Source: a virus. From it: a stretch of DNA of 18,305 nt. This document shows positions 1,037 through 18,305 of this stretch, one piece after another. The DNA is taken from positions 1 through 18,305 of the IMG/VR virus record IMGVR_UViG_3300045988_008988, one strand, 5' to 3'. The position numbers and the translations under genes were made by a program. Numbering within the stretch: the stretch's first letter is position 1; every line of letters begins with the position of its first letter. The notes under the pieces were generated by a model that saw only the letters and a program-made list of their open reading frames with translations, was not told the DNA's origin and ran no database searches.

Positions 1037-1038
1037 TA

Positions 1039-2567: not shown

Positions 2568-3851
2568 CTAGTTGGTGACGTACCGGCGTATTTCCCACCT
2601 GCTCGCCATATTCATCTCACCCGACGCGGTGAACAGATTCGGCCCGTTTCCCGGCCCACCGTGGGATAATGTCTCATCCTTGCTGTCCGCCGTAAACATT
2701 TCCACATGGTCCCATGCCTGCGTATAGGCACCCCAGTCCAGCAACAGCAAGTCGGCGGCGTGAGCCTTGGCGATGGCATCCGACACCGATGTGTCGGAGC
2801 TGCCGCAGACGCGGGTGCCCTTGCTTGCCATCTGGCCTGTCCATGTGCCCACGTCAATACCTAGCACGTCCTGATAGGCACGCCAACACACGCTGGAACA
2901 ATCGCCGTACCCGCTTGACTCGGGGTCTAATCGCCCCGCGCCCTGCGAATAAGCGTATTTGCCGATGCGTGATCGCAGCCATTCCACGACACGTGCCGCG
3001 TCCTCGCTGCTACTGCCGGAACTGGAACCGCCGCCAGTCTGGCCGCCGCCCGGCTTGGTTGATTCGGAAGTCTTGTATACCCATGTCTGTGCGACGCTTT
3101 TTACAAAAATGGCGGTACTGTCCCCGCTATGGTAAATCAAGTTGTCGCCCTGCAATTGTATCCACGCGGTACTCGCGGGTTTCCCGTCGATGCCGGGCCG
3201 GTCGCCTCCCGGCGTGTCGGACGGTTCGGAGGTTTGGCCAAAATCAGGCGGCGCGGACGTGCCATCCCACGATTTCAGTAGATCATACGTGGTCGTATAC
3301 CGATTACGGTACTGGCCTAGCACGCCATCCGCCAAAATCGTGGTGTAAATCAATTCCAGCGTGGCGGTTGCCGAGCATGATGCAAGCACGCGCTGCGCCT
3401 GCGCCGGACTCTGGTGGTAGGCGCAGGCCCACATGATACGCTCTTTTACGTTCCCTGACGGGAAACCATACCCGTCCATAATGGACTGGTAACTATTCCA
3501 ATCCGCCTCCCATTGCGCCTCCTGAAACGCATGGTTTTCGTCGCGTTGCGCCCACGTTTTCCACGCATTACCCTCGGCGGTGGATAGGTAGCGTGCCGTC
3601 CAGTTGATGTCATTCGCCTGCACCTGCTGCGCCAGTGTGGGAGCCGCCGAGGCGAACGTGTTCCACCCGTCCGGGTCGGCGGTGCGCCCTCGTTCCAAGA
3701 GATTGCGGGCGCGAGTGCCGTACCACTGCATCATGCCCACAGTGATGGCGTCAACGTAGTTGCACGCGCTCCAATCGCAATTGCTTTCCACCGTGCCGAT
3801 AACATACATCGCGTATAGTGTTGTATTATCCATGATAATAGTATACCCCAC
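2568..3851 (-). CDS. Tail-associated peptidoglycan hydrolase (phi29 gp13 position): lysozyme/transglycosylase-like N-domain plus NlpC/P60 cysteine peptidase C-domain
   Basis: 427 aa. The N-terminus has IGTVESNCDW (a Glu-Ser catalytic-type motif) in a Trp-rich ~190-aa domain. A Gly/Ser linker (GGGQTGGGSSSGSSS) follows. The C-terminus has GYGDCSSVCWRAY ... DHVEMF ... SHGG, an NlpC/P60-like Cys/His arrangement. It sits between the fibre genes and the ATPase, as gp13 does in phi29. The start may be ATG 3833 rather than GTG 3851. TAG stop. Confidence 0.8.
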   Translation of the reverse strand: MGYTIIMDNTTLYAMYVIGTVESNCDWSACNYVDAITVGMMQWYGTRARNLLERGRTADPDGWNTFASAAPTLAQQVQANDINWTARYLSTAEGNAWKTWAQRDENHAFQEAQWEADWNSYQSIMDGYGFPSGNVKERIMWACAYHQSPAQAQRVLASCSATATLELIYTTILADGVLGQYRNRYTTTYDLLKSWDGTSAPPDFGQTSEPSDTPGGDRPGIDGKPASTAWIQLQGDNLIYHSGDSTAIFVKSVAQTWVYKTSESTKPGGGQTGGGSSSGSSSEDAARVVEWLRSRIGKYAYSQGAGRLDPESSGYGDCSSVCWRAYQDVLGIDVGTWTGQMASKGTRVCGSSDTSVSDAIAKAHAADLLLLDWGAYTQAWDHVEMFTADSKDETLSHGGPGNGPNLFTASGEMNMASRWEIRRYVTN

Positions 3852-3895
3852 GGCGCGGAACCGTGTGATATATGTTATGGGCTATGCCTCACGCC

Positions 3896-3973
3896 CTAAT
3901 GTAATGGTGCGCCGTCCATATCCCAATACCGGCCTTGAGTCTGTCTAATCCAATCATCAAAAGTAATAGCCAT
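3896..3973 (-). CDS. Possible leaderless 25-codon small ORF in the hydrolase leader
   Basis: ATG 3973 lies exactly 6 nt after the TGCTATAAT box, with no SD. It would encode MAITFDDWIRQTQGRYWDMDGAPLH. The only support is this geometry, which the portal and ATPase starts share. Confidence 0.2.
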   Translation of the reverse strand: MAITFDDWIRQTQGRYWDMDGAPLH

Positions 3974-3998
3974 GCCGCCATTATAGCAGCATGGCTAT
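3966..3998 (-). terminator. Hairpin after the fibre gene with an extended -10 box in its loop
   Basis: Perfect 10-bp stem (3966-3975 ATAGCCATGC with 3989-3998 GCATGGCTAT) and a 13-nt loop. On the minus strand it is followed by UACUUUUGAUGAUU. The loop contains TGCTATAAT (3980-3988). Confidence 0.55.
3980..3988 (-). promoter_or_regulatory. Extended -10 promoter box TGCTATAAT(GG)
   Basis: Exact TGnTATAAT on the coding strand within the 163-nt gap between the fibre and hydrolase genes. Confidence 0.45.
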
Positions 3999-4014
3999 CG
4001 CTTAAAATAGTCCG

Positions 4015-5949: not shown

Positions 5950-5952
5950 TGT

Positions 5953-6144
5953 CTAGTCCTTTTTTTCTCGAATTTGAGTATTGAGCTGGTTTAGAATCTG
6001 ATCTATCATGCGCATGGCTCTGTTGAACCCGTCGCGCATGTCCATCGGTGTCGCGTCATTGTAAAGCGGTAGTCCAAAATGTCCCGTCACACCGTATGCG
6101 GCTGAGTCCACTGGCGTGGTCTGCTGTCCGTCTGGCATGTCCAT
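5953..6144 (-). CDS. Short protein (63 aa) consisting mainly of a tail-fibre N-terminal anchor motif
   Basis: Contains HFGLPLYNDATPMDMRDGFNRAMRMIDQIL, paralogous to the N-termini of the two flanking ORFs. ATG 6144 overlaps the upstream TGA (TGATG) and follows a GGGAGAG SD. TAG stop. Confidence 0.6.
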   Translation of the reverse strand: MDMPDGQQTTPVDSAAYGVTGHFGLPLYNDATPMDMRDGFNRAMRMIDQILNQLNTQIREKKD

Positions 6145-6497
6145 CACTCTCCCGAAGCAGTGGTGGAAACGAACGGCAAGCCCTCCGCAGTGACCTTCGT
6201 ATCGTTAAGGTTTCTGACGGTATACTGTCCGCCACCGGTGGCCGGCACGCGGTTAAGGAAGTGATTAAGCGCGGTACCGAGCGCATTGGCGTTAGCTGCG
6301 CTCAATCCGAGAGCGGTGGCGAACGCGCTCAATCCCTCCGGCAGTGCCTCCGGTGTCGGGATGGCGTCAATCCTGTCCGACTGAGTTTTCAATGTCGTGT
6401 CGAGAATGTCCATCGAACGATTGTACGAACCTTCAAGATTCGGCACGTCAGTCGCGCTATATTTCTCCAAATTGTAATTCGGCGTTTTCTGCGTCAT
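6144..6497 (-). CDS. Short tail-fibre-like protein (117 aa) with the N-terminal anchor motif
   Basis: NYNLEKYSATDVPNLEGSYNRSMDILDTTL at the N-terminus. Strong AAGGAGA SD before ATG 6497. Confidence 0.7.
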   Translation of the reverse strand: MTQKTPNYNLEKYSATDVPNLEGSYNRSMDILDTTLKTQSDRIDAIPTPEALPEGLSAFATALGLSAANANALGTALNHFLNRVPATGGGQYTVRNLNDTKVTAEGLPFVSTTASGE

Positions 6498-6514
6498 TTG
6501 TCTTTCTCCTTATA

Positions 6515-7105
6515 TTACTGAGCGGTTTTCATAAAATGGTTGACCACGACGCCATTGGCGAGATTTTCCACCGTTAGCGGGTTGACGGGTTCGCCGTCAT
6601 CCACGTGCGCGTCGCGTGGCGTGATGCGCGGCTCGTTGTTGTGGAAAATGGTCTTGTTGCCGAGTACGGCGAACTCAAGGCATGAGTGCGCTGAGGCCAT
6701 CGGCACAGACAATTGCGCCATTTGGTTGACGCGTGCGCCGAAAACGGCCAATTCGCGGTACATATTACGCATTGCGTCAACGCTATTAACGTATCGTCCT
6801 TGCGTTACGTCATAAATATCATTGGTGATCTCGAGCTTGCCGAGCTTGCTTATAATATCCTCAAGCTGCACGTCAACCGACGCAAGATGCTCGTTGATTT
6901 CGGAGATTTCCACATCTGTCTTGTCGTATTCAGACTTCACCCATTCTTTCACCTTATCTACATATGTCTGCAAAGCGTCAAGATTATGGCGCAAGCATTC
7001 AATTAACTGTAATGTGGTCAATCCGTCACGATAGGTGAACGGAACAGATGTAGGCACCCCGTCGAACAGGCGTTGCCGTGGAACCAGTGCATTAATGTCA
7101 CTCAT
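6515..7105 (-). CDS. Hypothetical structural protein, tail or neck associated by position
   Basis: 196 aa counted from ATG 7105 (GGGAG SD 5 nt upstream; the ORF track starts at 7117). It has a central heptad-like helical stretch (LDALQTYVDKVKEWVKSEYDKTDVEISEINEHLASVDVQLEDIISKL). It lies between the lower collar and the fibres. No recognisable motif. Confidence 0.6.
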   Translation of the reverse strand: MSDINALVPRQRLFDGVPTSVPFTYRDGLTTLQLIECLRHNLDALQTYVDKVKEWVKSEYDKTDVEISEINEHLASVDVQLEDIISKLGKLEITNDIYDVTQGRYVNSVDAMRNMYRELAVFGARVNQMAQLSVPMASAHSCLEFAVLGNKTIFHNNEPRITPRDAHVDDGEPVNPLTVENLANGVVVNHFMKTAQ

Positions 7106-7107
7106 GA

Positions 7108-7902
7108 TTACTCCCATTCTTCGTAGTTATGGCAGTTACCGAATATTGTATCATACGATCCCCATACCTGCATGAAACACGGCTCTAGGCTGCGCACGAT
7201 TTCCATGTCCACGTTGATAATCGCCTGACGGTACTCTTGAATCAGGCTCATGGCGCTCTGGCTGCGCCCTGTCACGTGGCTCTTGCCCTTGGCGTTGCTT
7301 GAATCATGCTGGTAGTCGGTCGCGCTTTGCGCCGTGGTGTGGCTGGTCGAATCCTGCGAACTGGACGCGGTGCCGGAGCTGTCCGCTTGCGACTCGTTCG
7401 CGTGCGAGGCGTAGCGTGCGAAGTCGCCCACAACGCCGGTTTGCGGCACGTCACTGTCAAAACTCTTCGACGTGGTGGTGCTGGAATTATCCGACTTGCT
7501 ATTGCTGGAGCTGGTCGAATCCTGCATACTGGACGCTTTGCCCGACGACTGGGATTCGCTGCCGCTCTCGCTATCCGTCGTCATGTCCATGGAATCCAAC
7601 GGGTTGTATTCGATGTCCAACGTCTGATAGCGTTCATTGAAATAGGGCATGATTTCCGCCATGGTCATTCCCAGATAGAAAACGAATTGCTGGGCGGTTT
7701 CCTGTCCGATTTCCCGAAGCGCGTAATGGCGGATGATTTTCTCGTTCAACTCGGCGCGATGGTCTTCATCGTAAATCGGATAATAGTTGGCGCTGAGATG
7801 CAGCTTGTCGTCGGTATCATATCCGAATGCAATGAGATTGCCGAGGGTTTCGGTGTACTCGCCGGGCGTCGCCATCGCATAGGCGCTAAAATCCTGTGTC
7901 AC
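7108..7902 (-). CDS. Lower collar protein (phi29 gp11 type) with a Ser/Thr-rich insertion
   Basis: The N-terminal YPIYDEDHRAELNEKIIRHYALREIGQETAQQFVFYLGMTMAEIMPYFNERY matches the conserved lower-collar signature of small podoviruses as I recall it. GTG start with a GGAGG SD, overlapping the portal stop (GTGA). Directly downstream of the portal. Confidence 0.75.
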   Translation of the reverse strand: MTQDFSAYAMATPGEYTETLGNLIAFGYDTDDKLHLSANYYPIYDEDHRAELNEKIIRHYALREIGQETAQQFVFYLGMTMAEIMPYFNERYQTLDIEYNPLDSMDMTTDSESGSESQSSGKASSMQDSTSSSNSKSDNSSTTTSKSFDSDVPQTGVVGDFARYASHANESQADSSGTASSSQDSTSHTTAQSATDYQHDSSNAKGKSHVTGRSQSAMSLIQEYRQAIINVDMEIVRSLEPCFMQVWGSYDTIFGNCHNYEEWE

Positions 7903-8849
7903 AATACGCCTCCAATACCAGCGTCGTATGATGCGGGCATGTCGATATCCGCAGTGCCGCTTGCGCTAGAGTCAAGCGCGTTGGGCACTCCGGCACTTTG
8001 CACGTCCGCGTACTCTACCCACACGTTTAGTTGCGGCCACAGTCGGTTGATCTCCGTTGCCGCCGCCTGCCGCGCCTTAAGGAAACTCAATCGAAACACG
8101 TCCGTTTTCTCGTTGGCCTGCGCCACCTCGTCGGATATCAGTCTTTCCTTTTTTTCCGTGCCGGACGATTGAATGCCAAGATATCCCAGCACCTCGTTAG
8201 TGACCTGCGCCTTCTGCTGAATGAACTTGTCCAGCAGGTAAGGCGTAGTGTTGGGCCACGGTTGGAACATCGAACCGGGGTCAAGTGAATCATATCCGAT
8301 GATATAATCCTGACCGTCCTGACGCTGCTGGAGCATGTTCTGCACGGTGAGTTTTGTGCGCGGGTCGGCTGTGATGATGGTTGGCAGTTTCAGGCTCTCC
8401 AAATTCACATCATACGCTTTGTCGATATCTGCAAGGCGTCGCGCGTACTGCCATAATGTCGGCTTGAATCCGACGCGCATTCGATTGTCCCAAATTGGAA
8501 TGCATTCCGAGCCTGCTTTGAGTTGCCTATAGTGGTAGTTGACGCCTACCGGCTCGAACATAGTGGGATTATTGTACACATTCAGCCGACCTTGATAGCC
8601 CGCCTGAGTCACAAGGAACCTGCCGATACGCTTATCCTCGAAAAACAACGCGCACCCGTATTCGCACAGACATATTTCCAGCCAACGCTCATCCACAGTG
8701 GGCGGTAATCCGCGCCAGCTGAAACGGTTCAATGCGAGTTCCGTCAGTAAATGAAGATACATGTCATCAAGCGTGGCAGCGCGTGTTTTCGCGTAATTGC
8801 CGCGTGGATGCAACGCGCCGCCGACTCGATTCTTTTTAGACCTACTCAT
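7899..8849 (-). CDS. Portal (upper collar/connector) protein, phi29 gp10 type
   Basis: 316 aa (phi29 gp10 is about 309). GIQSSGTEKKERLISDEVAQANEKTD..FLKARQAAATEINRLW parallels the recalled gp10 segment [40 protein letters not shown]. The basic N-terminus MSRSKKNR resembles gp10 MARKRSN. Confidence 0.9.
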   Translation of the reverse strand: MSRSKKNRVGGALHPRGNYAKTRAATLDDMYLHLLTELALNRFSWRGLPPTVDERWLEICLCEYGCALFFEDKRIGRFLVTQAGYQGRLNVYNNPTMFEPVGVNYHYRQLKAGSECIPIWDNRMRVGFKPTLWQYARRLADIDKAYDVNLESLKLPTIITADPRTKLTVQNMLQQRQDGQDYIIGYDSLDPGSMFQPWPNTTPYLLDKFIQQKAQVTNEVLGYLGIQSSGTEKKERLISDEVAQANEKTDVFRLSFLKARQAAATEINRLWPQLNVWVEYADVQSAGVPNALDSSASGTADIDMPASYDAGIGGVL

Positions 8850-8855
8850 ATTGCC

Positions 8856-8864
8856 ATTATATCA
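8856..8864 (-). promoter_or_regulatory. Extended -10 box TGATATAAT(GG), 6 nt upstream of the portal ATG
   Basis: Exact TGnTATAAT. Its TGA is the tail-knob stop codon. No SD lies between the box and ATG 8849. Confidence 0.45.
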
Positions 8865-11171
8865 CTCGTAGCCAATGCCAGGCAGTGGCTCATTGTCCGC
8901 CCAATCGGTCACGCCGATATCCTCCGGTCTGCTCCATACGGTAACGCCTCTCTCGAACATGCCCTTAATGGTCAGCCGTGCCTGTTCGGGCAGTGTACCT
9001 TTAATATAGCATTCCTGCATCTGCCAGTACGAGAATTTCTCCATGCATTGCAGACTTGCGGGCGGGGTGACGAACCGTTGGACAAAATACCCGAAGCGCA
9101 GCATGAATTCGCCCACCGAACGCAACGCGCTGGGGGCGCACGTGCGGAAACGAACCAACACGCCCATAATACCGTTAGCGAGGTTGAACGAGTCGCCGCC
9201 CGCCGAACCGCTCGTAGTCGGCGGGGTCATCTGCATTTGCTGGACTTGAGCGTTAATTCCAGCTATCGAGTTCTCATAGTCTCCTTCGGCAAAGCGCGTG
9301 GCCAGTCGATAGTTCTGACCAGCCATCAAAGCGCTAGACGTGCCCTGAATCTGCTGGGCACGTTGCGCGTAAGTGTTCGCCTGCGAGGTTTGCGCCGCAT
9401 TGGTTGCCACACTGTTGGCAGTGTTCGCCGCCGCCGTGTCGTTGGCGATGTCACGGCTGGCGTACAGTCCCTTGTTGGCGATGTCGTTCTGTACGATGCC
9501 GCCGATGGCGCCAGCGGCGCCGCCAATCAGTCCGGCCACGCTCCCTGACGCCAATGCGTTCCCCGCATTAGAAATCAGCCCCCACGTGGTTTGCGCGTTG
9601 TTTTGTGATACGTTCAGGTTGATCATGGCGTTAGTGTTCGCCTGTCCGATGGCCAACGACCGGTTAAGTGAGTTGGCTGCAATGGCGTTAAGCGCGTTCC
9701 GGTTCGTAATACCCAGTTGGGTCATCTCTTGCTGAGTGCGAATCGCCGTGCCGGCCTGAGATAATGCGTTGGCTGCGCTCATGGTCGCTTTTTGCTGCGC
9801 CCAACCGGCAGACTGCTCCGCATATGCGCGAGCGTATGTGCTGTTTGCCATAGCAAGCGAAGCCCCGTTGTTCACCACCATGAACTGCGGGAAGTTTGTG
9901 ATACCAAAACTCACGTTAAGCATTTCTCCGCCGTCAATCGGCAGCCCGGTGCCGTTCCCGGACGGGGAGGAAACGGCAGACGCGCCTCCCGTATTGTAGT
10001 TCACCGGGTAAAAGTTCAGGCGCGGAGACGGTGGCGCGTAGTTCCACGTTTCGCGGATAACCAAGTCATTAGACTGGATATCTTCGGGCCGATAGATGAT
10101 ATTCGAGCCATTCAGGCACGAGCATTCCACGACGCTATACGGGTAGCACTGTAGTTTTTTTAGATTATGGTACCGTTTGGGGATATTAAAGTTATTGCGA
10201 AAATTCTTGATAGAGACAATATCGTCATACCTGTTATCGCTTTTAGCCTCCCATATAAACGTATACACATGCCCCTTAACCACACCGGCCGCGTCGTTGC
10301 CAAAAAATTGCGTTACCTCTCTGCCGGCGTCAGCTATATAGTCGGCGCTAATTTTGGGGATGGCGTAAATCGCCGTAATGCCCTGAGTGACCCACGGGTA
10401 CGAACCCCCTGCCTGCATAACGCGCGTAAAATCGTCGGCGGTGTCAAAATAATAAATCCCCGCGCCATTGGATTGATTCTCGAATTGTGAGCCTTGCGCG
10501 GTTTTCAGCGACGGTTTTTCAGTACTACCGCCCGACACCACAAGATCGGTTGTAGCCACGACAATGACACCATAATCCAAGGTTGGTGAGTTAAACCCGG
10601 GCTGCGCGGGCTTGCTGGACACAAGCGCCGTATATGACTGTGAGGTAACGACGGTTTCCGCGCCGGTGTCCAGTCCCTCCGGCAGTGCAAGCGTGGTACG
10701 CCCGTAATCGTCCCATTGGCGTTCATTGGCAATGCCGATATGGCCGCGCGTCACATAGCAGCTACCAAAGCTTACGTCAAATTGGAAACTCTGCCATACG
10801 TCCAGCATAAGCGTGAGCTGTGTGGTGTGCGCGTTAATGTATTCCACGGATTCGATGAAATAATACCAAGCGCGTGGCGATCCCAGTTCGGGGTAATCGT
10901 TGACGGCGACGAGGTAATTATAGTTTGATGCTTGGTTAAATGGCATGTCGATACGAACGGGGGCGCCGAAAATATGCATGGTGGCCGGACGGCATTCCAC
11001 TCCGTCCAGTTTGTCGAACCATTCTCGCTGCGTTTCACGTGAAACAAACCGTACGATATCACGGTATGAAGCATCCCACGGCACTCGGCAGAGTTTCAAC
11101 GTCGTGTTTGGCGTCCATTCCGCCCACGAAAAATTCGACTCCACATAAGGATTCACGTCGTCAATCATCAT
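8862..11171 (-). CDS. Tail knob (distal tube) protein, phi29 gp9 type, with an enlarged internal loop
   Basis: YNYLVAVNDYPELGSPRAWYYFIESVEYINAHTTQLTLMLDVWQSFQFDVSF parallels the recalled gp9 segment [48 protein letters not shown]. The C-terminus FSYWQMQECYIKG..GVTVW parallels FNYVQTKDCFISG..GITLW. The start is probably ATG 11171 or 11168, after GGAGGACA; the ORF track starts at 11201. Confidence 0.88.
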   Translation of the reverse strand: MMIDDVNPYVESNFSWAEWTPNTTLKLCRVPWDASYRDIVRFVSRETQREWFDKLDGVECRPATMHIFGAPVRIDMPFNQASNYNYLVAVNDYPELGSPRAWYYFIESVEYINAHTTQLTLMLDVWQSFQFDVSFGSCYVTRGHIGIANERQWDDYGRTTLALPEGLDTGAETVVTSQSYTALVSSKPAQPGFNSPTLDYGVIVVATTDLVVSGGSTEKPSLKTAQGSQFENQSNGAGIYYFDTADDFTRVMQAGGSYPWVTQGITAIYAIPKISADYIADAGREVTQFFGNDAAGVVKGHVYTFIWEAKSDNRYDDIVSIKNFRNNFNIPKRYHNLKKLQCYPYSVVECSCLNGSNIIYRPEDIQSNDLVIRETWNYAPPSPRLNFYPVNYNTGGASAVSSPSGNGTGLPIDGGEMLNVSFGITNFPQFMVVNNGASLAMANSTYARAYAEQSAGWAQQKATMSAANALSQAGTAIRTQQEMTQLGITNRNALNAIAANSLNRSLAIGQANTNAMINLNVSQNNAQTTWGLISNAGNALASGSVAGLIGGAAGAIGGIVQNDIANKGLYASRDIANDTAAANTANSVATNAAQTSQANTYAQRAQQIQGTSSALMAGQNYRLATRFAEGDYENSIAGINAQVQQMQMTPPTTSGSAGGDSFNLANGIMGVLVRFRTCAPSALRSVGEFMLRFGYFVQRFVTPPASLQCMEKFSYWQMQECYIKGTLPEQARLTIKGMFERGVTVWSRPEDIGVTDWADNEPLPGIGYE

Positions 11172-11186
11172 TGTCCTCCGGTATGG

Positions 11187-11227
11187 CAAGGCCCGGAGCA
11201 ATCACGTGGATTACGCTCCGGGCCTTG
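11187..11227 (-). promoter_or_regulatory. GC-rich 13-bp hairpin just upstream of the tail-knob RBS
   Basis: CAAGGCCCGGAGC (11187-11199) pairs perfectly with GCTCCGGGCCTTG (11215-11227) around a 15-nt loop. It shares CGTGATTGCT and the downstream GCCAT..ACC-RBS layout with the hairpin at 13395-13422. Confidence 0.6.
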
Positions 11228-11240
11228 TCCTGCATCACAC

Positions 11241-11258
11241 CGTGAGAGAAGGTAGCCA
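11241..11258 (-). terminator. Short hairpin after the capsid gene (weak terminator or attenuator)
   Basis: On the minus strand, GGTAGCC-GATT-GGCTACC (7-bp stem) followed by UUCUCUC. It lies 22 nt after the capsid stop. Confidence 0.4.
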
Positions 11259-11273
11259 ATCGGCTACCCTCCC

Positions 11274-11282
11274 ATTATATCA
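11274..11282 (-). promoter_or_regulatory. Extended -10 box TGATATAAT(GG) overlapping the capsid stop codon
   Basis: The same 11-mer, TGATATAATGG, occurs at 8854-8864. Here its TGA is the capsid stop. Confidence 0.4.
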
Positions 11283-13010
11283 CGCGGTCACGGTCACACT
11301 CTTCTCCCCGGACACGCCGAACAGCGTGGCGGTGATATCAGAAGCGCCCGCCTTGACGCCAGTCACCACGCCGGACTCGGACACGGTGGCGTTCGCCGGA
11401 GTGCCGGACGTCCATGCGGCCTGTGCGGTCACGTCGGCGGTACGCCCGTCGATCATGGTCGCCACGGCGGTCGCCTGCGCCGTATGTCCTACGGTCACGT
11501 TCGGGACGGTCACGGCAATCGATGCGACGATGGAGGGGTTGAATCCGATAACACCGTCACCGACCACGGGCACGTCCAGAGCTGCGGACACGGTGCCCGG
11601 CACTTCCGGCGTCGCCGGGTTCGTGTACAAGGCGGTTGCGGTAATCGGGATGGTGGTGTTCGGTTCGTCAAGACCGACCACCAGCACGCCGGTAGGCGAG
11701 ATATACGTGTAATCGCTCTTCGGCTTAACAGTATCGCCAATGCGATACTCGACCGCATCGGAGCGGAACGTGGCGGCACCGTCATTAGTGATGGTCGTGT
11801 CGGCGGTGACCTGCACCGCGCCACCACGCGCCACATTGTTCGGAGTTTCCGCACCGCCGCCGTACATGGCGAGTTTGAGTTGGAATGTCGGCGTCTGAGC
11901 CTGCGTGCCGGCAGGGGCCACCACGTTGGCCGTGGACGCCGCGCCGGTCCAGAACATCACAGCCGGAGCAAAGCCGGACACCGAGATGATGTGCTGTACA
12001 TGCAGATAATGGTTGACCGAATTGATGTTGACGGGGTTGGTCTGCTGGGTCATCTCGTTGATGACCGGAATGTCGATCAAAAACTTGTCGGTCGTCAGAA
12101 TGGCCTGCACGCCATCCATGCCGAAACGGTCCTGCGGAATGACTATAATCCGGTCGATGGTCGGCTCGGCGTCCGTACGCTGAAATACCGTGGCGAGGCC
12201 CTGCACGTCAAGCGCCGACTTGACTTCCGGCGAACAGAACAGCACGAGTTCGTCAGGACGGGCAAAGGTCGGCATGTGACGGGCGTTGTACTTGGTGGAA
12301 ACGAATTTTAGCGTGTCGGCCCATGCGCGAATCTGGCGCAGCATGTCGCGGGCGTCGGTTTCCGAACTACCCATATTATTCAGATCATTGTCCATATGGA
12401 CACGCCAGTATCCGCCGAGTTTCGCGTACTCCACGAACTGATGGCACAATGCCTCGAAAAGGTCAACCTCGGCCGCATTATAGCAGGATGTGAGAATCTG
12501 CGAGGTGAGCGATGCCAAACCGTTTTCGGACGTGAAAGCACGCTGCAATGTCTTGTCGTCCGTAGTTGCGGGATACCAGTGAGCGAAATCCAGACGGTGG
12601 TAGAGCGAGTCCACGTCGATTTTCCACTTGCGGAAATTGTCAGCGCCGAGATATTCCGCATCAGGATCATAGACCTGCGCAAGCGGCATTCCCACGGCGA
12701 TTTCCTGCCACGTGTCGCCATACGCCTGCGATGCACGCTGAAAAACGCTAAGCGGATTGTTCCAACGCCACGTATTCACGTAGGTGCCGCCGATACGGTT
12801 CACCAATGCCGAGTAAAACTCGTTCTTCAGCTGGGTAGACGACATGAGCGTAGCCATCTGCCTATCCATATTCATCTGAGTGGCCGAGGGCATTCGCCGC
12901 TGGTACTCTGGCGACGCCTCGTTGCGAATCATATTGAGAATCTGGGCGTTGTTGAATTCGGTGAGCGGGCGAAGCTGCTGCTTCGGCGTCACCACTGGAG
13001 TAGTTGCCAT
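11280..13010 (-). CDS. Major capsid protein with a C-terminal Ig-like (Big_2) domain
   Basis: 576 aa, directly after the scaffold gene, with an AGGAAGGA SD. The C-terminal ~75 aa (VTVGHTAQATAVATMIDGRTADVTAQAAWTSGTPANATVSESGVVTGVKAGASDITATLFGVSGEKSVTVTA) is a textbook Big_2 pattern, and phi29 gp8 also carries a BIG2 domain. Position and size match the capsid gene of phi29-like phages. Confidence 0.85.
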   Translation of the reverse strand: MATTPVVTPKQQLRPLTEFNNAQILNMIRNEASPEYQRRMPSATQMNMDRQMATLMSSTQLKNEFYSALVNRIGGTYVNTWRWNNPLSVFQRASQAYGDTWQEIAVGMPLAQVYDPDAEYLGADNFRKWKIDVDSLYHRLDFAHWYPATTDDKTLQRAFTSENGLASLTSQILTSCYNAAEVDLFEALCHQFVEYAKLGGYWRVHMDNDLNNMGSSETDARDMLRQIRAWADTLKFVSTKYNARHMPTFARPDELVLFCSPEVKSALDVQGLATVFQRTDAEPTIDRIIVIPQDRFGMDGVQAILTTDKFLIDIPVINEMTQQTNPVNINSVNHYLHVQHIISVSGFAPAVMFWTGAASTANVVAPAGTQAQTPTFQLKLAMYGGGAETPNNVARGGAVQVTADTTITNDGAATFRSDAVEYRIGDTVKPKSDYTYISPTGVLVVGLDEPNTTIPITATALYTNPATPEVPGTVSAALDVPVVGDGVIGFNPSIVASIAVTVPNVTVGHTAQATAVATMIDGRTADVTAQAAWTSGTPANATVSESGVVTGVKAGASDITATLFGVSGEKSVTVTA

Positions 13011-13032
13011 GATGGTTATTCCTTCCTAATTG

Positions 13033-13374
13033 TCAGTCTTCATATAGGTCGTCGAACGTGCTGTAGGTGCCGTTGTAGTCGTCGTCGGTCATTTCAGCCG
13101 ATTCCGGCGTCGCGTCATCATCGGGGCCGTCGTGCAGCACGTGGTCTGCTGCCGCGTCGCGCATCGCCTCGATGGTTTTGGACAGTTCCGCCACGGTCGC
13201 CTCCAATGCGCTCAACCGGTCGGCCATGTCGGCGTCCTTGTCATCGCCCGCATCTTCAGGCTCACCATCGGTCTGCGTTTCCGGCTCCGGGTTCGGCGTA
13301 TTGTCGTCGGCGTTCGCGTCCGGCTCGTTGTCGGGCGTGATATCCGGCTTGTCATCATTTTCGGTGTCGTCCAT
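13033..13374 (-). CDS. Scaffolding protein (phi29 gp7 position)
   Basis: 113 aa, very acidic (Asp/Glu-rich ends) with a central helical segment (RLSALEATVAELSKTIEAMRDAAA). Immediately upstream of the capsid gene. ATG 13374 follows a GAGGTG SD; the ORF track starts at GTG 13380. Confidence 0.65.
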   Translation of the reverse strand: MDDTENDDKPDITPDNEPDANADDNTPNPEPETQTDGEPEDAGDDKDADMADRLSALEATVAELSKTIEAMRDAAADHVLHDGPDDDATPESAEMTDDDYNGTYSTFDDLYED

Positions 13375-13394
13375 AATCACCTCTTAAGGTAGAT

Positions 13395-13422
13395 GGCACG
13401 GCAGCAATCACGCTGCCGTGCC
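13395..13422 (-). promoter_or_regulatory. Perfect 11-bp hairpin 3 nt upstream of the scaffold RBS
   Basis: GGCACGGCAGC pairs with GCTGCCGTGCC around a 6-nt loop (GUGAUU on the minus strand). No U-tract follows, so it is more likely a processing, stability or translational element than a terminator. Confidence 0.6.
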
Positions 13423-13435
13423 GGAATTGCTAGGC

Positions 13436-13546
13436 TGTGCGGGTTCCCTCGCCGTCAATGGGCGTTGGCTACGCACGTCTACATCCGACCGGATCGCCTT
13501 ACCGATTGCCTACCGGTCGGGCCATTGAATCAGCTTGGGACGCACA
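13436..13546 (-). ncRNA. Candidate structured RNA (three-way junction): pRNA-like or late-operon leader
   Basis: Hand-folded nested helices on the minus strand. The closing stem is 13546-13541 with 13441-13436 (6 bp), 13540-13537 with 13448-13445 (4 bp), 13534-13531 with 13454-13451 (4 bp, one G-U) and 13528-13522 with 13461-13455 (7 bp). These close a junction holding a bulged 8+4-bp hairpin (13520-13485) and a 4-bp hairpin (13474-13462). There is no ORF here. The structure lies downstream of the TGCTATAAT box at 13561-13569. Confidence 0.4.
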
Positions 13547-13560
13547 CCCCGCTACCCGTT

Positions 13561-13569
13561 ATTATAGCA
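13561..13569 (-). promoter_or_regulatory. Extended -10 box TGCTATAAT overlapping the polymerase stop codon
   Basis: Exact TGnTATAAT at the head of the 181-nt non-coding gap before the structural genes. Candidate late promoter. Confidence 0.45.
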
Positions 13570-15022
13570 CAAAAAAACAGCCGTCATCGTTGACATGGCG
13601 AGACTTCGGCAGGAAGTCGTCGTAGGGGATAGGGGTTGCCCGATGCACGCCACTCAACCGCATCACCGTGCTGCCGTCTCCCTCTACGCCGCAATATTTG
13701 CGATTGCCGAGAATGCGAATTTTTTCATAGGTGTGGTCATTTTTCCACGCACCCAGTTTCTTGTCGTCCGTTTCGATGCCAATAGGCACGTCCAGTCCCT
13801 CCAATATCATGCCGTCCGTATCGGCGTAGAGCACACGGTCGGCGTTCGCGTTCATCGCGCGGGACAGTATTTGCCGACCGTAAGCGTTGACATAGGCGGC
13901 GGTCGGTAGCCATGCGAGTGAGTTGGCTGACTCAGGTTTGTCCACAGTAAAGTCCACGCCGCCGTCGCCGGAAGGCTTCGGATGCAGCATAGGCCGGTAA
14001 AGCGAGGCCCCGAATTTTCCCACCAGCGAGTTTAACAATAGTTTCGCCATTTGCCGACGCTCTCCGGTCGCGGTTTGTTTCACGTGAAACCATTTATCAA
14101 CGTAGCCGTAATAAAGTCCATGCGATTTACGAAACTTCCAGCCGCCGATATGATCCCACACATGGACGTCATAGTTTTCCGTCAAGGTCTGCCAATCCAC
14201 ATCGGTCACGGGCATGGTGACGACACCTAGCGTACTGTCCAGACGTTCGCCCTCATACCCCCATACTGGCAGGATATTTGTGAGCGTCGCCGTTTTTCCC
14301 GGTTTCAGTCGCGCGTCGAACGCGATAACATCGATATGCAGGGGATAATCGGCGTCATAATGATATTCCCCCTCATACCATACAGGAGTGCCTACCGGCA
14401 TGGCAAAGTCGCGCATGACACTCGGATAAAGACTATTCACATCCCAGCTGTTGCAATCCCGATATTCGCCCGGCCTGCTGTGCACTATCGCTCCATAGTA
14501 TGCGGGGCGCATCCTGTGATAATCCGCTTTGTCCAATGGCGGGAAATGGCGTTTGAATCCGGCATAATCTCCGCCGATATAGTCGGACATCGCCATAGAC
14601 GCTATGGTTGTGCCCTTAAGGTTCAGGGCGTCGCATTCCTGTGCGATGTTCCACGTGGTTTCCAAGTCATCCACGCCGCCAAATGTTTCGCGTGAGACAT
14701 TCAGCCCGTCATCGCGCGTGATGTTGCGCACGTCCAGAAAATCCACGGTGATGCCGCCCATGCGCACGCGAAAACTGTAGAAATGGCCGCGAATGTTAAA
14801 AGTGCCCCAGACTCCACTTTTTGCCGGGTTCGATTGCAATGGCAGTCGTTTCAATAGTTCTGCGGCTATGGGCTTGATGTCCTGCCATCCGTGAGCGCAC
14901 CAGACGCGCGTATGGTGGTCAAGCATGGTTAGCCGAATGACGGCATTCGCCGTCAATGGCACTATACCGTCATCTGTCAATAGTATTGCGCCGTCTGTTG
15001 CCGCCGTTCGACGCTCTCGCAT
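13562..15022 (-). CDS. Family-B DNA polymerase, protein-primed (phi29 gp2 type)
   Basis: 486 aa with DVNSLYPS (motif A), KLLLNSLVGKFG (Kx3NSxYG-type motif B), YADTDGM (YxDTDS-type motif C) and a RKY (KxY) motif. RPAYYGA..DVNSLYP parallels the recalled phi29 segment RYAYRGG..DVNSLYP. The gene follows the putative terminal protein gene, and the genome has ITRs. Confidence 0.92.
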   Translation of the reverse strand: MRERRTAATDGAILLTDDGIVPLTANAVIRLTMLDHHTRVWCAHGWQDIKPIAAELLKRLPLQSNPAKSGVWGTFNIRGHFYSFRVRMGGITVDFLDVRNITRDDGLNVSRETFGGVDDLETTWNIAQECDALNLKGTTIASMAMSDYIGGDYAGFKRHFPPLDKADYHRMRPAYYGAIVHSRPGEYRDCNSWDVNSLYPSVMRDFAMPVGTPVWYEGEYHYDADYPLHIDVIAFDARLKPGKTATLTNILPVWGYEGERLDSTLGVVTMPVTDVDWQTLTENYDVHVWDHIGGWKFRKSHGLYYGYVDKWFHVKQTATGERRQMAKLLLNSLVGKFGASLYRPMLHPKPSGDGGVDFTVDKPESANSLAWLPTAAYVNAYGRQILSRAMNANADRVLYADTDGMILEGLDVPIGIETDDKKLGAWKNDHTYEKIRILGNRKYCGVEGDGSTVMRLSGVHRATPIPYDDFLPKSRHVNDDGCFFVL

Positions 15023-15037
15023 GATTCCATCCTTTTT

Positions 15038-15982
15038 TCAGTGTCTTGCTGCGCTGATCATCCATTCGTCAAGTCGTGTCTCTACATCTCCCGCGTCCGC
15101 TTTAGTTTCCCATTTGTGCGCCTTATCATTATACCATGTTGCCTCGCGCGCGACAACACTGAAATTCGTGTTGTTTATCAGCCATCGTTTTTGTCGGTTA
15201 GACAAGGATGCGAATCTTTGGGCGACACTGGAATCGAATGCTTCGAGCTGTTGCGCGACCTTATCGAAATCCGAAACACCCTCGTTCTCGGGAATACGCC
15301 TAGTTCCCGCGCGTAATGGCGCACGTCCAATAAGTCCGGCGTATTCTAGCACTTCTCGCTCCAGTTTCCTACGGCTCCCTTCTCGCATCATCGCACGTGC
15401 ATGGCTTATTCCACGCTCTGTACCAAACACGTTCGCACGGCTTCGCACGAGTTCATCGCGTGCCGAACCGCCGACCGTGTGTGTGCCCAACACGTCGACC
15501 GGAGATTCCCCTGCGCGTTCCATTTCACGCATTTCACCCACGGTATAGCGGGCCATGCTCAGCGCCTCGAATTGTTGGGCACGCTTGATTTTCTGCCGTG
15601 CCTCAACTCGGCGGCGCTGCTGCTGCCGTAACGTTTTCCGACGTTTCGACGGAGCGGCGGCAATTTCCGCGTCGGTTATCAGCGGGCGCGCGGCCATCTC
15701 ACGATCAAGTTTCGTAACATGAACGTCTGGAACGACCTGATACGGTTCGTTATCCCGCGCCCTTAAGGCTTGCTGTTGCTCTCCGAACTCCTGCCCGATG
15801 CGTCGTGCTACCTGTTCAAGCTGTTGGGCACTGAGATTTCCTAAAAACGTTTCAGTAATTTGCTTAGGTAGACGTCCGGTGCTGTAATCTCTGACCGCTC
15901 GCTCTCGGCGCACCTGTGCCGACCTGATTGCGGCGTTGCGTTTCAGATTGTCAGCGCGTCGGCTGTTTTTGCGTTTTGCCAC
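15038..15982 (-). CDS. Putative terminal protein (phi29 gp3 position)
   Basis: A highly basic, Arg/Gln-rich protein of ~314 aa immediately upstream of the protein-primed polymerase, as gene 3 is in phi29. I recognise no diagnostic motif. I prefer GTG 15982 (GGGGGAG SD), because the longer ATG 16057 version would contain the terminator hairpin at 16006-16041. Confidence 0.5.
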   Translation of the reverse strand: MAKRKNSRRADNLKRNAAIRSAQVRRERAVRDYSTGRLPKQITETFLGNLSAQQLEQVARRIGQEFGEQQQALRARDNEPYQVVPDVHVTKLDREMAARPLITDAEIAAAPSKRRKTLRQQQRRRVEARQKIKRAQQFEALSMARYTVGEMREMERAGESPVDVLGTHTVGGSARDELVRSRANVFGTERGISHARAMMREGSRRKLEREVLEYAGLIGRAPLRAGTRRIPENEGVSDFDKVAQQLEAFDSSVAQRFASLSNRQKRWLINNTNFSVVAREATWYNDKAHKWETKADAGDVETRLDEWMISAARH

Positions 15983-16005
15983 GGTCTCCCCCTGTGAGTA
16001 TGAAA

Positions 16006-16041
16006 CACCCCTCGCCGCAAAGATGGAAACGGCGAGGGGTG
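16006..16041 (-). terminator. GC-rich hairpin (terminator or attenuator) between the SSB and terminal protein genes
   Basis: 12-bp stem (16006-16017 CACCCCTCGCCG with 16030-16041 CGGCGAGGGGTG) and a 12-nt loop. Followed on the minus strand by only a short U run (UUUCAU). Confidence 0.55.
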
Positions 16042-16049
16042 AGTTTGGC

Positions 16050-16075
16050 GGCAACATCCCTATAGGGACATTGCC
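16050..16075 (-). promoter_or_regulatory. Strand-specific 11-bp hairpin with a UAUA loop
   Basis: On the minus-strand RNA, GGCAAUGUCCC-UAUA-GGGAUGUUGCC pairs fully, with two G-U wobbles. On the plus-strand RNA those two positions would be C-A mismatches. A TGATATCAT -10-like box abuts it at 16076-16084. Confidence 0.5.
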
Positions 16076-16103
16076 ATGATATCACACGGTGCGGACAATA
16101 ATG

Positions 16104-16541
16104 TTACTTGCGCTTGTTTTCCGACACCAGTTCAAGGTCGAAGAATTTGTAGCCACGACGACTCTTCTTTTCCACCACCTTGAGAGCAAGCGGCGCAGAC
16201 CATGTGTCCGGCGTGCCGAAAATGGCGAACAGATTGCCGAATGCGTGCGCCAACGTGGGGGAGGCGGCGGCAAAGTCGCCTTCCTCTGCGTGAATGACGA
16301 CGCGGGTAGACGAATTGATTTCACCAGTCTCCTGATTGGCGACCTCGATAGCCTGCGCCAGCACGTTGGTGACATGCAACGGTTCATTAAGGTGTTCATC
16401 TACCTTATCGGCGGTCTGCATGGCGTTGTACAGCGCCATCTTTCCGTCCATGGTGGAAGTATCGAAAAAGTGGGATACGGCGTTAGTGCCGTTCGCGGAA
16501 AAGTTATTGCCGTTCGTTACGGTCAGTTCGTTGTCAGCCAT
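16104..16541 (-). CDS. Single-stranded DNA-binding protein, phi29 p5-like
   Basis: 145 aa. FFDTSTMDGKMALYNA, RVVIHAEEGDFAAASPTLAHAFGNLFAIF and LALKVVEKKSRRGYKFFDLEL parallel the recalled phi29 p5 segments FDTETLEGQIKIFNA, TTIFAADGSLYSAISKTVAEAASDLIDLV and FKVKVVQGTSSKGNVFFSLQL. The position upstream of the TP and polymerase genes matches gene 5. AAGGAAAGG SD. Confidence 0.6.
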   Translation of the reverse strand: MADNELTVTNGNNFSANGTNAVSHFFDTSTMDGKMALYNAMQTADKVDEHLNEPLHVTNVLAQAIEVANQETGEINSSTRVVIHAEEGDFAAASPTLAHAFGNLFAIFGTPDTWSAPLALKVVEKKSRRGYKFFDLELVSENKRK

Positions 16542-16572
16542 TAGTGTTGCCTTTCCTTATAGGGGTTGTTAA

Positions 16573-16884
16573 TTATTTTTCCTCGGTGATGATATCATCT
16601 TCAACAACGTTGCCATTAACCGGCCCCGGATAATCGATGATGGTATCATCTCCAAATTCACAATTAGCCCAGTAGATTGCTTCATCCATGCGCGTTGCTT
16701 GCGCATGATATTCGGCGGACATTGGTAGCATGTCCTTGTTGATTTTGCGGGCTTTTTTCATAGCCATGTCAGCTGTACGGCACGCGCCATTCACGACTAC
16801 CTCAGTGTCAACGAGTTCGCCGTTTTCACCGCGCGTGATGCCGCGCACAATACTGTAATGCTTGGCTCTCTTAATGTATGCCAT
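16573..16884 (-). CDS. Hypothetical early protein, possibly a p6-like dsDNA-binding protein
   Basis: 103 aa from ATG 16884 (AAGGCGG SD 7 nt upstream). Its size, acidic C-terminal tail (VVEDDIITEEK) and position just upstream of the SSB mirror phi29 gene 6. Sequence resemblance is only vague. Confidence 0.55.
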   Translation of the reverse strand: MAYIKRAKHYSIVRGITRGENGELVDTEVVVNGACRTADMAMKKARKINKDMLPMSAEYHAQATRMDEAIYWANCEFGDDTIIDYPGPVNGNVVEDDIITEEK

Positions 16885-16901
16885 AATCATACCGCCTTAT
16901 C

Positions 16902-17432
16902 TTATTGTTGCTGCTGTTGTGACATTCTTGCAATGTCTTCATCAGTATACCGCATGTCAGTGAGATTGTCAAAACATCGACACGCGATTTTAACAACGGT
17001 CTGGGCAAATTCATTACCATCCCAGGCCTTGCACATTTCATAACATGTCGCACCTTTGACATGACAGACGGCGCACCACGCCACCATAGCCGGAGCATAA
17101 ATAACGCCACCCAACATTTCAATATCCTGAGTTCGCGCCAACGCGCCGATGCGCGACGTGCGGGGGGAAAGTGATAAGCAAACGTTTGCCGCATGTTCGA
17201 TGCCGTCAGCGAACGCCACCTGAGCACCTTGAGGCTCATAAAAGACCTTGAGTAGCGCTATACTACGACATAATGTTTCCCAGTCCCCCTCTCCTCGATT
17301 ATATTCGCGCAAATGCAACTTACGCCGACGACCACGAATGACACGGCGCACACGATCATCATCTAGTATGCCATCATCAAACCAGTTCGTACGTTTATCG
17401 CCGTCATCACAATTCAAGTTCTTCAATTTCAT
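16902..17432 (-). CDS. Hypothetical early protein, Cys-rich with a poly-Gln C-terminus
   Basis: 176 aa with a TGGAG SD. Contains WCAVCHVKGATCYEMCKAW..ACRCF and ends in QQQQQ. No recognisable family. Confidence 0.6.
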   Translation of the reverse strand: MKLKNLNCDDGDKRTNWFDDGILDDDRVRRVIRGRRRKLHLREYNRGEGDWETLCRSIALLKVFYEPQGAQVAFADGIEHAANVCLSLSPRTSRIGALARTQDIEMLGGVIYAPAMVAWCAVCHVKGATCYEMCKAWDGNEFAQTVVKIACRCFDNLTDMRYTDEDIARMSQQQQQ

Positions 17433-17434
17433 AA

Positions 17435-17644
17435 TTAAAACTCCAGTGTATCCTCGCTAAACCCAGCACCATACAACCACATGTTTAACCACACAGCCTT
17501 ATCTGGGCACCGTTTCGGCGGATTATAAGCGCTATGCCCATGCCGCACACCAGCCCAAAAAGCGCGCAAACGCCAATACGTATCAGCGTCAGGACAGTTG
17601 CCACACGTCCACGAATGAATCCAACCACGAAAATACACAATCAA
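17435..17644 (-). CDS. Hypothetical small Trp-rich early protein
   Basis: 69 aa, starting at TTG 17644 or GTG 17638 (AGGGA SD), coupled to the upstream stop. Rich in Trp and Cys. Confidence 0.5.
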   Translation of the reverse strand: MIVYFRGWIHSWTCGNCPDADTYWRLRAFWAGVRHGHSAYNPPKRCPDKAVWLNMWLYGAGFSEDTLEF

Positions 17645-17892
17645 TCCCTATCCTTAAGCGGTTTGGCCGCGATACCCATAGCGTCCAGTACCATGGCTCG
17701 CATTTCGTTCGCCTTCGTAGGGTCATAACCACACCGCGCGACCCCCTTAGTCAAGCCGATAGGCGTATGAAACTCAACATCATATGTTAGATAAAACAAG
17801 TGTTGGTGAGTGCAGTATTCGATACGCACATCACCCCCCATATGAGGGCTGTTGAACCTTCCGACACGAATATCTCCATAAGACATTTTCAA
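17641..17892 (-). CDS. Hypothetical early protein
   Basis: 83 aa. ATG 17892 follows a GGAAGGA SD, which lies ~18 nt downstream of the TTGGTG-16-TGGTATAAT promoter. Confidence 0.6.
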   Translation of the reverse strand: MKMSYGDIRVGRFNSPHMGGDVRIEYCTHQHLFYLTYDVEFHTPIGLTKGVARCGYDPTKANEMRAMVLDAMGIAAKPLKDRD

Positions 17893-17910
17893 TCATCCTT
17901 CCCTAATCAA

Positions 17911-17938
17911 ATTATACCAAAAACGATAACAACACCAA
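17911..17938 (-). promoter_or_regulatory. Candidate early promoter: TTGGTG, 16-nt spacer, TGGTATAAT
   Basis: -35-like TTGGTG (17933-17938), a 16-nt spacer and an extended -10 TGGTATAAT (17911-17919), followed by an SD and ATG 17892. This is the most complete sigma-70-type promoter in the window. Confidence 0.6.
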
Positions 17939-17976
17939 TAATACACGCGCAAATAACAAGAACAGAAGAAAGCATA

Positions 17977-18300
17977 TCAATACACCACCTTGTAATAATA
18001 AACCACATATCCGCTTGAAACGTTATATTCAGAAGAGAGCAGGTTAACATGAGCGTAAGATATGACTCCTTCAATCTGGAGAACTCTACGCAAAGCTTCA
18101 TAAGAGTCTTTGGCATGGACTACACGATAACTACGAGTCGGCGACTCCACTTGGAGATAGTCGCGTCCATCCCAATCAACAATGATATACGTATACCCTT
18201 TCACACTCACGCTTTCCTCGAACGCTTCGATAAAATCACCAGCCGGAAACAAATCACAATCACCATACTCCTCAATGATCATATCATTGACCAAAGCCAC
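17977..18300 (-). CDS. Hypothetical first early ORF, opening inside the right ITR
   Basis: The frame is open from GTG 18300, only 5 nt from the terminus. A more realistic start is GTG 18210, after GAGGAAAGC at the inner ITR edge, giving ~77 aa. The sequence looks protein-like (KGYTYIIVDWDGRDYLQVESPTRSYRVVHAKDSYEALRRVLQIEG). No known family. Confidence 0.45.
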   Translation of the reverse strand: MALVNDMIIEEYGDCDLFPAGDFIEAFEESVSVKGYTYIIVDWDGRDYLQVESPTRSYRVVHAKDSYEALRRVLQIEGVISYAHVNLLSSEYNVSSGYVVYYYKVVY

Positions 18301-18305
18301 ATGAT
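18207..18305. repeat. Right inverted terminal repeat (ITR), 99 bp
   Basis: Exact reverse complement of bases 1-99. Confidence 0.95.

Follow-up and report, generated by a model that had tools for sequence, protein, structure and literature searches.

The window studied here is an 18,305-bp stretch of viral DNA (IMG/VR record IMGVR_UViG_3300045988_008988, positions 1 to 18,305) that represents a complete linear phage genome with an inverted repeat at both ends. On its minus strand, at 13562-15022, the open reading frame (ORF) list and translation give a 486-amino-acid (aa) DNA polymerase of family B (PolB) that is protein primed. The initial annotation, made on the interval 14453-15022, which codes for residues 1 to 190 of this polymerase, had described an N-terminal domain that is shortened and shows no recognizable catalytic residues of the exonuclease motifs ExoI, ExoII, and ExoIII; the lack of a functional catalytic set is supported by profile searches, structure prediction, and conservation in the family. 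The start codon is reliable, because it is preceded by a GGA-rich ribosome-binding site, the upstream ORF stops 16 nucleotides (nt) before it, and more than 100 homologs have the same N-terminus and length.

The family assignment is clear. Pfam PF03175 matches residues 133 to 341 with 114 bits against a cutoff of 25.8 (positions 171 to 390 of the 468 in the profile), PHROG 1907, DNA polymerase, is hit with an E value of 1e-53, and phmmer against the PDB aligns residues 155 to 443 with residues 206 to 500 of the phi29 polymerase (1XHX; E value of 5e-44). An AlphaFold2 (AF2) model of the full-length protein, computed from a 14-sequence alignment, has a mean predicted local distance difference test (pLDDT) score of 90 and a predicted template modeling (pTM) score of 0.87, and Foldseek aligns it over its whole length with the phi29 enzyme (template modeling score for the query [TMq] of 0.83 to 0.85 over 574 columns). 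The protein thus has the family profile, the polymerase motifs, and the TPR1 and TPR2 insertions of protein-primed PolBs. At its N-terminus, the exonuclease fold is there, and the motifs ExoI (DxE), ExoII (Nx2-3F/YD), and ExoIII (Yx3D) are degenerate or absent.

No DNA nearly identical to the window was found in the phage collection, and identification went through protein searches. The closest cultured relatives by protein are the Bifidobacterium phages BadAztec1/2/4, BadAargau2, BD811P1-3, and BP1, whose polymerases show 33 to 37% full-length identity and bear no annotation beyond "DNA polymerase" or "hypothetical protein." In metagenomes, there is a large swarm of polymerases that are 85 to 94% identical to that of the window, on contigs of 17 to 19 kb, one of them labeled as originating from a Bifidobacterium breve metagenome-assembled genome. 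We considered the 85 to 90% identical variants as evidence of hypermutation and rejected them as such, since they do not discriminate between explanations. The short relatives form a clade of polymerases of 454 to 496 aa, of which 106 sequences were compared (83 near, 9 intermediate, and 14 distant members).

Fold of the N-terminal domain

Residues 1 to 139 (14606-15022, minus strand) are predicted to form a small DnaQ/RNase H-like domain that is about 50 aa shorter than its phi29 counterpart (residues 1 to 189). AF2 prediction of residues 1 to 150 alone gave a pLDDT of 90.9, with strands at 4-9, 13-16, and 19-22, a helix at 25-31, a strand at 37-42, a helix at 46-59, strands at 70-75, 81-88, and 91-97, short helices, and a long helix at 119-132. 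The elements follow one another as they do in the exonuclease domain of phi29, except that the first hairpin is shortened and one loop region is gone. With the isolated domain as query, Foldseek returned the phi29 polymerase as the sole confident match in the PDB (TMq of 0.64 to 0.66, probability of 1.0, 9 to 10% sequence identity), and the best matches in BFVD were N-termini of protein-primed PolBs, at the top those of BadAztec1, Sulfolobus ellipsoid virus 1, uncultured podoviruses, Streptococcus phage SOCP, and Mycoplasma phage P1. An AlphaFold model, which was part of the check that the initial annotation had proposed, recovered the phi29 exonuclease fold in a smaller form.

At the profile level, hhalign against canonical exonuclease domains aligned residues 63 to 148 with phi29 residues 82 to 198 (probability of 88.7%, E value of 2.6e-6) and put the Yx3D motif of ExoIII within a deletion. 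Residues 1 to 62 had no match to canonical exonuclease domains in this comparison, and residues 1 to 150 alone matched no Pfam family at an E value of ≤1; the canonical polymerase of an Eggerthella phage, used as a control, matches the Pfam profile from position 10. Because of the fold match and the hhalign link, we regard residues 1 to 139 as a highly diverged homolog of the exonuclease domain and not as a new domain.

Catalytic positions

Active DEDDy exonucleases have four invariant carboxylates (D, E, D, and D) and a Tyr or His as general base. A hidden Markov model (HMM) trained on 113 canonical exonuclease domains reads D-E-D-Y-D at these positions in 119 longer relatives, and also in the polymerases of Eggerthella, Curtobacterium, and Arthrobacter phages, while it shows gaps at all catalytic positions in every member of the short clade. 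Since the canonical HMM cannot align the short clade, residue equivalence was taken from a MAFFT alignment with bridging sequences, together with hhalign and AF2 secondary structure. The alignment comprised 11 polymerases of the short clade and 8 canonical ones, among them phi29, for which the sequence used closely matches 1XHX.

In this alignment, the two ExoI carboxylates of phi29, D12 and E14, are replaced by R4 and T6, and the single-stranded DNA (ssDNA)-binding residue T15 by A7. The ExoII residues N62, F65, and D66 correspond to H44, Q47, and D48, and S122 and L123 of the (S/T)Lx2h motif correspond to V98 and R99. K143 of the Kx2h motif, the ssDNA-binding Y148, and the ExoIII residue Y165 are all deleted, and the ExoIII residue D169 aligns with D119. 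In all eight canonical sequences, almost all of these positions are occupied by the canonical residue. In the window, the corresponding segments, all on the minus strand, are the ExoI-equivalent strand and hairpin turn RRTAATDGA (aa 4 to 12; 14987-15013), the ExoII-equivalent WCAHGWQD (aa 41 to 48; 14879-14902), the (S/T)Lx2h-equivalent FLDVRNITRD (aa 95 to 104; 14711-14740), which contains Asn100 and Arg103, and the ExoIII-equivalent region GGVDDLETTWNIAQECDA (aa 115 to 132; 14627-14680), with a 27-aa deletion just upstream. It is this 27-aa stretch, within the ExoII-ExoIII gap, that takes away K143, Y148, and Y165.

Thus, the domain has the RNase H-like alpha/beta fold of DEDDy (DnaQ-like) exonucleases, and at the four carboxylates and the Tyr/His position it reads R4, T6, D48, a deletion, and D119. 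As it has the fold but fails the DEDDy pattern, the protein is not to be classed among active exonucleases. Profile alignment, which the initial annotation had named as a check, likewise found no full set of Asp, Glu, and Tyr at the catalytic positions (here with Pfam, HMM, and hhalign).

The strings on which the initial annotation had based its alignment by eye are all present (TDDG at 16-19, LDHH at 34-37, RVW at 39-41, FNIRGH at 75-80, WNIAQECDAL at 124-133, and DVNSLYP), and motif A does lie at D194 compared with position 249 in phi29, but several of the equivalences have to be redrawn. RVW at 39-41 is not RVW 23-25 of phi29; it belongs to the strand before ExoII (phi29 L58-Y59-F60). FNIRGH aligns with phi29 "IISRMG" (about residues 93 to 98) instead of the ExoII segment HNLKFD; the ExoII Asp position, assigned to H80, is held by D48; similarly, ExoIII had been seen at E..TWN, and its Asp position is held by D119, with the Tyr deleted. 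For ExoI, the missing Glu is confirmed (T6), while the aligned positions are R4 and T6 and not TDDG or LDHH. With D48 and D119 aligned, the window protein may have kept an Asp at two of its five catalytic positions. Where the initial annotation had placed an absence of about 58 aa between ExoII and ExoIII, the alignment shows about 50 aa missing relative to phi29 and spread over three sites: the N-terminus has lost about 8, the ExoI-ExoII interval about 10, and the ExoII-ExoIII interval about 32.

Across the 106 short-clade sequences, N100 and T139 are the only invariant residues of the domain, and no acidic residue is conserved. In distant members, the position of D10 is occupied by N, T, H, E, or Q or is absent; D48 becomes T, S, V, I, L, or P outside the near subclade; and D119 is replaced elsewhere in the clade by P, V, A, R, Y, H, or N or is absent. 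The shortest members (BadAztec1, P0125, and P0129) lack the first strand entirely.

The polymerase half

The remainder of the protein is that of an intact phi29-like polymerase, and all of its elements are read from the minus strand. Motif A, DVNSLYP (14423-14443), supplies the catalytic D194 and the steric-gate Y199. It is followed by the TPR1 insertion (aa ~206 to 302; 14117-14407), almost without gaps against phi29 261-358; motif B, KLLLNSLVGKFG (aa 327 to 338; 14009-14044); the TPR2 insertion (aa ~342 to 364; 13931-13999), aligned to phi29 398-420; motif C, YADTDG (13811-13828), with D401 and D403; the KxY motif, reading RKY (13694-13702), with R441 and Y443; and a shortened thumb (aa 456 to 486; 13565-13657; phi29 530-575). 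D194, Y199, K327, D401, D403, and Y443 are invariant in the alignment, and N331 and G335 are conserved as well.

Motifs A, B, and C had been called intact. This holds for the catalytic Asp and Lys residues, but not for the motif B Tyr (phi29 Y390), which is nearly universal in family B and here is Val334; the motif reads KLLLNSLVGK against the consensus Kx3NSxYG. The Tyr position is V, I, T, or A across the whole short clade. Among relatives with an intact DEDYD set in which motif B was found, the Tyr is present in 101 of 109, and it is missing in 6 of 13 other relatives with a degenerate exonuclease. The loss of this Tyr may be a change of the nucleotide-binding pocket that coevolved with the loss of proofreading. 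Two further features distinguish the C-terminal part: the position of phi29 K498 in KxY is Arg or another non-Lys residue in 11/11 short-clade sequences and Lys in 8/8 canonical ones, and the thumb is reduced by about 15 to 30 aa relative to phi29, or by about 30 aa when taken with the C-terminal region, which terminates in a clade-conserved ...F-V-L.

Conservation of the tunnel residues

The domain is maintained. Comparing the window with the 83% identical polymerase of contig L005, a single sequence pair, we obtained ratios of nonsynonymous to synonymous substitution rates (dN/dS) of 0.083 for residues 1 to 140 and 0.072 for the rest of the protein. Only at two positions of the domain, Tyr82 (14777-14779, minus strand) and Thr139 (14606-14608, minus strand), do the short and the canonical polymerases share an invariant residue, Tyr82 in 19/19 aligned sequences of both kinds and Thr139 in all short-clade and canonical sequences examined. 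Work by Truniger et al. from 1998 reportedly indicates that the phi29 polymerase requires its N-terminal domain for the binding of terminal protein and primer DNA. Tyr82 and Thr139 are the equivalents of phi29 Tyr101 and Thr189, which stabilize the downstream template in a tunnel formed by TPR2, palm, fingers, and exonuclease domain, and this tunnel is held responsible for strand displacement (PMC6351526). Retention of the tunnel residues together with loss of the catalytic and ssDNA-site residues is the pattern expected of a scaffold pseudoenzyme.

Evolution of the short clade

In a neighbor-joining analysis of the polymerase domain, the short clade was monophyletic in 28 of 30 bootstraps, which makes the short N-terminus a feature of a lineage and not a product of chance or assembly. 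Its nearest neighbors, P0140 (526 aa) and P0135 (543 aa), are longer and already exonuclease degenerate, and P0140 appears to have the same ExoIII-region deletion as the short clade. These longer degenerate neighbors are consistent with inactivation first and shrinkage after.

Scattered among the best 150 library hits are about 18 other relatives of 516 to 584 aa with noncanonical residues at ExoI, ExoII, or ExoIII, such as YFL for DFE, DxQ for DxE, and KFY or KFF for KFD. The degenerate relatives are P0133, P0135, P0140, P0152, P0175, P0180, P0186, P0205, P0207, P0219, P0228, P0230, P0239, P0244, P0245, P0256, P0261, and P0263. Judging from their sequences, exonuclease decay may have occurred repeatedly among uncultured phi29-like protein-primed PolBs (pPolBs).

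Interpretation and alternative explanations

We consider it probable that the replicase encoded by the window works by protein priming and strand displacement, that its small exonuclease domain is conserved yet catalytically dead, and that its replication goes unproofread. The polymerization half is intact, with palm, fingers, both TPR insertions, and a thumb of reduced length, and the N-terminal 3'-5' exonuclease domain would have turned into a smaller, dead pseudoexonuclease whose DnaQ-like fold is kept under purifying selection. A likely cause of this selection is that the pseudoexonuclease retains the noncatalytic tasks of the phi29 domain: together with TPR2, it would enclose the downstream template in a narrow tunnel and so bring about strand displacement, and it would help to bind the terminal protein and primer DNA. 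The 18.3-kb genome would then be replicated from terminal-protein-capped ends by strand displacement and without intrinsic proofreading, so that fidelity would depend on nucleotide selection alone. Searches of PHROGs, Pfam, and the PDB by sequence found no separate exonuclease among the other ORFs of the genome.

Several points weigh against this interpretation. Within the subclade to which the window belongs, 83/83 near relatives share D10, H44, D48, and D119, which are mostly retained down to about 46% identity, E121 is conserved there too, and H44, D48, and D119 vanish jointly in P0095 to P0097, which makes a residual or altered site possible in place of a pure scaffold. The residue equivalences come from sequence and profile alignment and from the order of secondary-structure elements, not from superposition in three dimensions, and the dN/dS values come from one sequence pair. 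Finally, a small ORF without a family match could supply an exonuclease in trans.

The first of these points leads to a reading in which the domain, at least in the subclade of the window, is still an exonuclease with noncanonical residues, D10, H44, D48, D119, and E121 forming a one- or two-metal site. The alignment of D48 and D119 with phi29 D66 and D169 agrees with it. In DEDD enzymes, the ExoI carboxylates ligate both metals, but here both are replaced (R4 and T6), and the Tyr general base and the counterparts of the ssDNA-binding residues T15, N62, F65, S122, L123, K143, and Y148 are replaced or deleted as well. D10-G11 (N-G in P0098) lies at the hairpin turn that joins strands 4-9 and 13-16, a location that points to a structural role, and none of the five residues is conserved clade-wide, though the domain is. 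We regard a noncanonical active site as unlikely, if worth keeping in mind.

A second alternative leaves the domain dead and lets a host exonuclease or an uncharacterized small phage protein proofread in trans, in which case fidelity would not be reduced. Cellular replicases provide a general precedent with their separate, trans-acting proofreading subunits, and the window has several ORFs without a detectable family (16082-16399, 16573-16890, 16902-17432, 6515-7117, and 13033-13380). However, no exonuclease signature was found in any ORF by the sequence searches mentioned above, and we know of no trans proofreader for any protein-primed polymerase. In phi29-type enzymes, moreover, TPR2, thumb, and palm form a ring that encloses the primer end (PMC6351526), and access for a proofreader from outside would therefore seem unlikely. 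On balance, we find proofreading in trans improbable.

That the short N-terminus is an artifact of a miscalled start, a frameshift, or a decaying pseudogene can practically be dismissed, since the ribosome-binding site, the lack of room upstream, and more than 100 independent homologs rule out a truncated gene, dN/dS is 0.07 to 0.08, and cultured, plaque-forming Bifidobacterium phages share the same short polymerase.

Returning to an unproofread replicase, a broader proposal can be put forward only tentatively, and we would not yet count on it: that a lineage of gut Bifidobacterium podophages, abundant in human metagenomes, replicates without proofreading at a per-base mutation rate 1 to 2 orders of magnitude above that of other double-stranded DNA (dsDNA) phages and that the small domain and the motif B Tyr-to-Val change make up an evolved, compact, exonuclease-free strand-displacing design.

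Comparison with known polymerases

The closest well-studied enzyme is the phi29 polymerase (gp2; 1XHX, 2PZS, 2PY5, and 2EX3), which the window polymerase resembles in TPR1 and TPR2, motifs A and C, the KxY Tyr, the overall fold, the topology of the N-terminal domain, and the two tunnel residues. The genomes are also alike in being linear DNA with inverted terminal repeats and in the order of the genes for single-stranded DNA-binding protein (SSB), putative terminal protein, and polymerase. The window polymerase differs in being 89 aa shorter, in its exonuclease domain of 139 instead of 189 residues with 9 to 10% identity, in the degenerate or deleted DEDDy set and (S/T)Lx2h and Kx2h motifs, in the Val at Tyr390, and in the shorter thumb; unlike in phi29, the genes of the window all lie on one strand. 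The cultured Bifidobacterium phage polymerases belong to the same short clade, with the same degenerate N-terminus and genome architecture, but they are more reduced: BadAztec1 (469 aa) lacks the first strand and the hairpin and has T and N in place of D48 and D119 of the window.

The initial annotation had judged a naturally proofreading-deficient protein-primed replicase to be unusual. We found no description of exonuclease loss in phi29-like or Bifidobacterium phages in the literature covered, which includes a phi29-like review, a PolB survey, and a polymerase-swapping study and takes in the journals in part. In a wider sense, it is less unusual, given the other degenerate relatives described above and a precedent in mavirus-like virophage pPolBs and polinton-like virus pPolB-S1H fusions, in which the exonuclease domain is lost or a remnant, lower fidelity is predicted, and the loss goes along with the acquisition of a helicase (PMC11161782). 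Those enzymes are from eukaryotic viruses of another realm and have fused terminal-protein and vOTU domains; their exonuclease domain is largely removed, whereas the window keeps a conserved small fold, and no helicase was found in the window, unlike in the mavirus/polinton-like viruses. Inactivated exonuclease domains are kept as a structural module in Pol alpha and Pol zeta (PMC7544198), but these enzymes belong to cells, are RNA/DNA primed, and have accessory subunits, and neither is the only replicase of a genome. The exonuclease-deficient D12A/D66A mutant of the phi29 polymerase still polymerizes and is impaired in strand displacement (PMC6351526), a defect for which there is presumably some compensation in the natural clade.

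Polymerases of the phi29 type are the textbook case of a self-sufficient, high-fidelity, strand-displacing replicase, and to our knowledge, the exonuclease motifs are usually taken as universal in phage protein-primed PolBs. A widespread, monophyletic clade that has lost the catalytic residues and retains the fold in a smaller form is a natural experiment that separates the roles of the domain in the tunnel, in terminal-protein binding, and in primer binding from proofreading. It leads to the prediction of unusually high mutation rates in dsDNA phages of Bifidobacterium from the human and honeybee gut, which, if true, would bear on phage-host arms races in this niche. Sequencing and amplification make use of exonuclease-deficient variants of phi29 polymerase, and a natural exonuclease-free, strand-displacing enzyme of 470 to 490 aa, if confirmed as such, would be an attractive scaffold for such applications.

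Genome organization

The terminal inverted repeats span 108 nt each (1-108 and 18198-18305); their arms are 96% complementary, and the outermost 98 to 99 nt are identical. The terminal bases of the window are 5'-ATCATGTGG, and the related contig L005 starts with TATCATTTTG, with ATCAT common to both. In adenovirus, a CATCAT terminal repeat serves jumping-back. The ends of the window recall this repeat, with the caveat that bases may be missing from the assembled ends.

Every recognizable gene lies on the minus strand, and PHROG matches, among them major head protein, upper and lower collar, tail protein, and terminase, give the gene set of a phi29-like podophage (Salasmaviridae-like; nearest genus, Badaztecvirus). 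In the near relative L005, the Pfam matches are Phi29_MCP, Phage_connector, phi29_gp9_C, and Phi29_Phage_SSB. From the left end, the window encodes an endolysin (152-1036), a holin (1039-1413), a packaging ATPase/terminase (1410-2537), a tail fiber of 644 aa (4015-5949), the lower collar (7108-7902), the upper collar/connector (7899-8849), a tail protein (8862-11201), the major capsid protein (11280-13010), and, beyond PolB (13562-15022), a 339-aa ORF (15038-16057) and a phi29-type SSB (16104-16541). The tail-fiber-like protein has weak matches to PHROG families annotated as phosphodiesterases at residues ~150 to 315 and may, as far as these matches go, carry a receptor-degrading enzymatic domain.

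Gene order makes the 339-aa ORF, at the place of the terminal-protein gene in phi29-like phages, the candidate terminal protein: SSB, 339-aa ORF, and polymerase follow each other as do SSB, terminal protein, and polymerase in Curtobacterium phage Prophecy. The ORF had no family match in PHROGs, Pfam, or the PDB and no detectable homology to known terminal proteins; its homologs, found solely in Bifidobacterium phages, show 25 to 31% identity and keep the position. It is longer than the terminal protein of Prophecy (262 aa).

A 14-nt palindrome, GTTTCACGTGAAAC, occurs in two exact copies and one copy with two mismatches (chance expectation of 0.07), at 11032-11045, 14077-14090, and 14685-14698, one in the tail-protein gene and two within the polymerase gene. 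The exact copies are inside a perfect inverted repeat of 20 nt (11032-11051 and 14071-14090), and the palindrome could be a putative protein-binding site.

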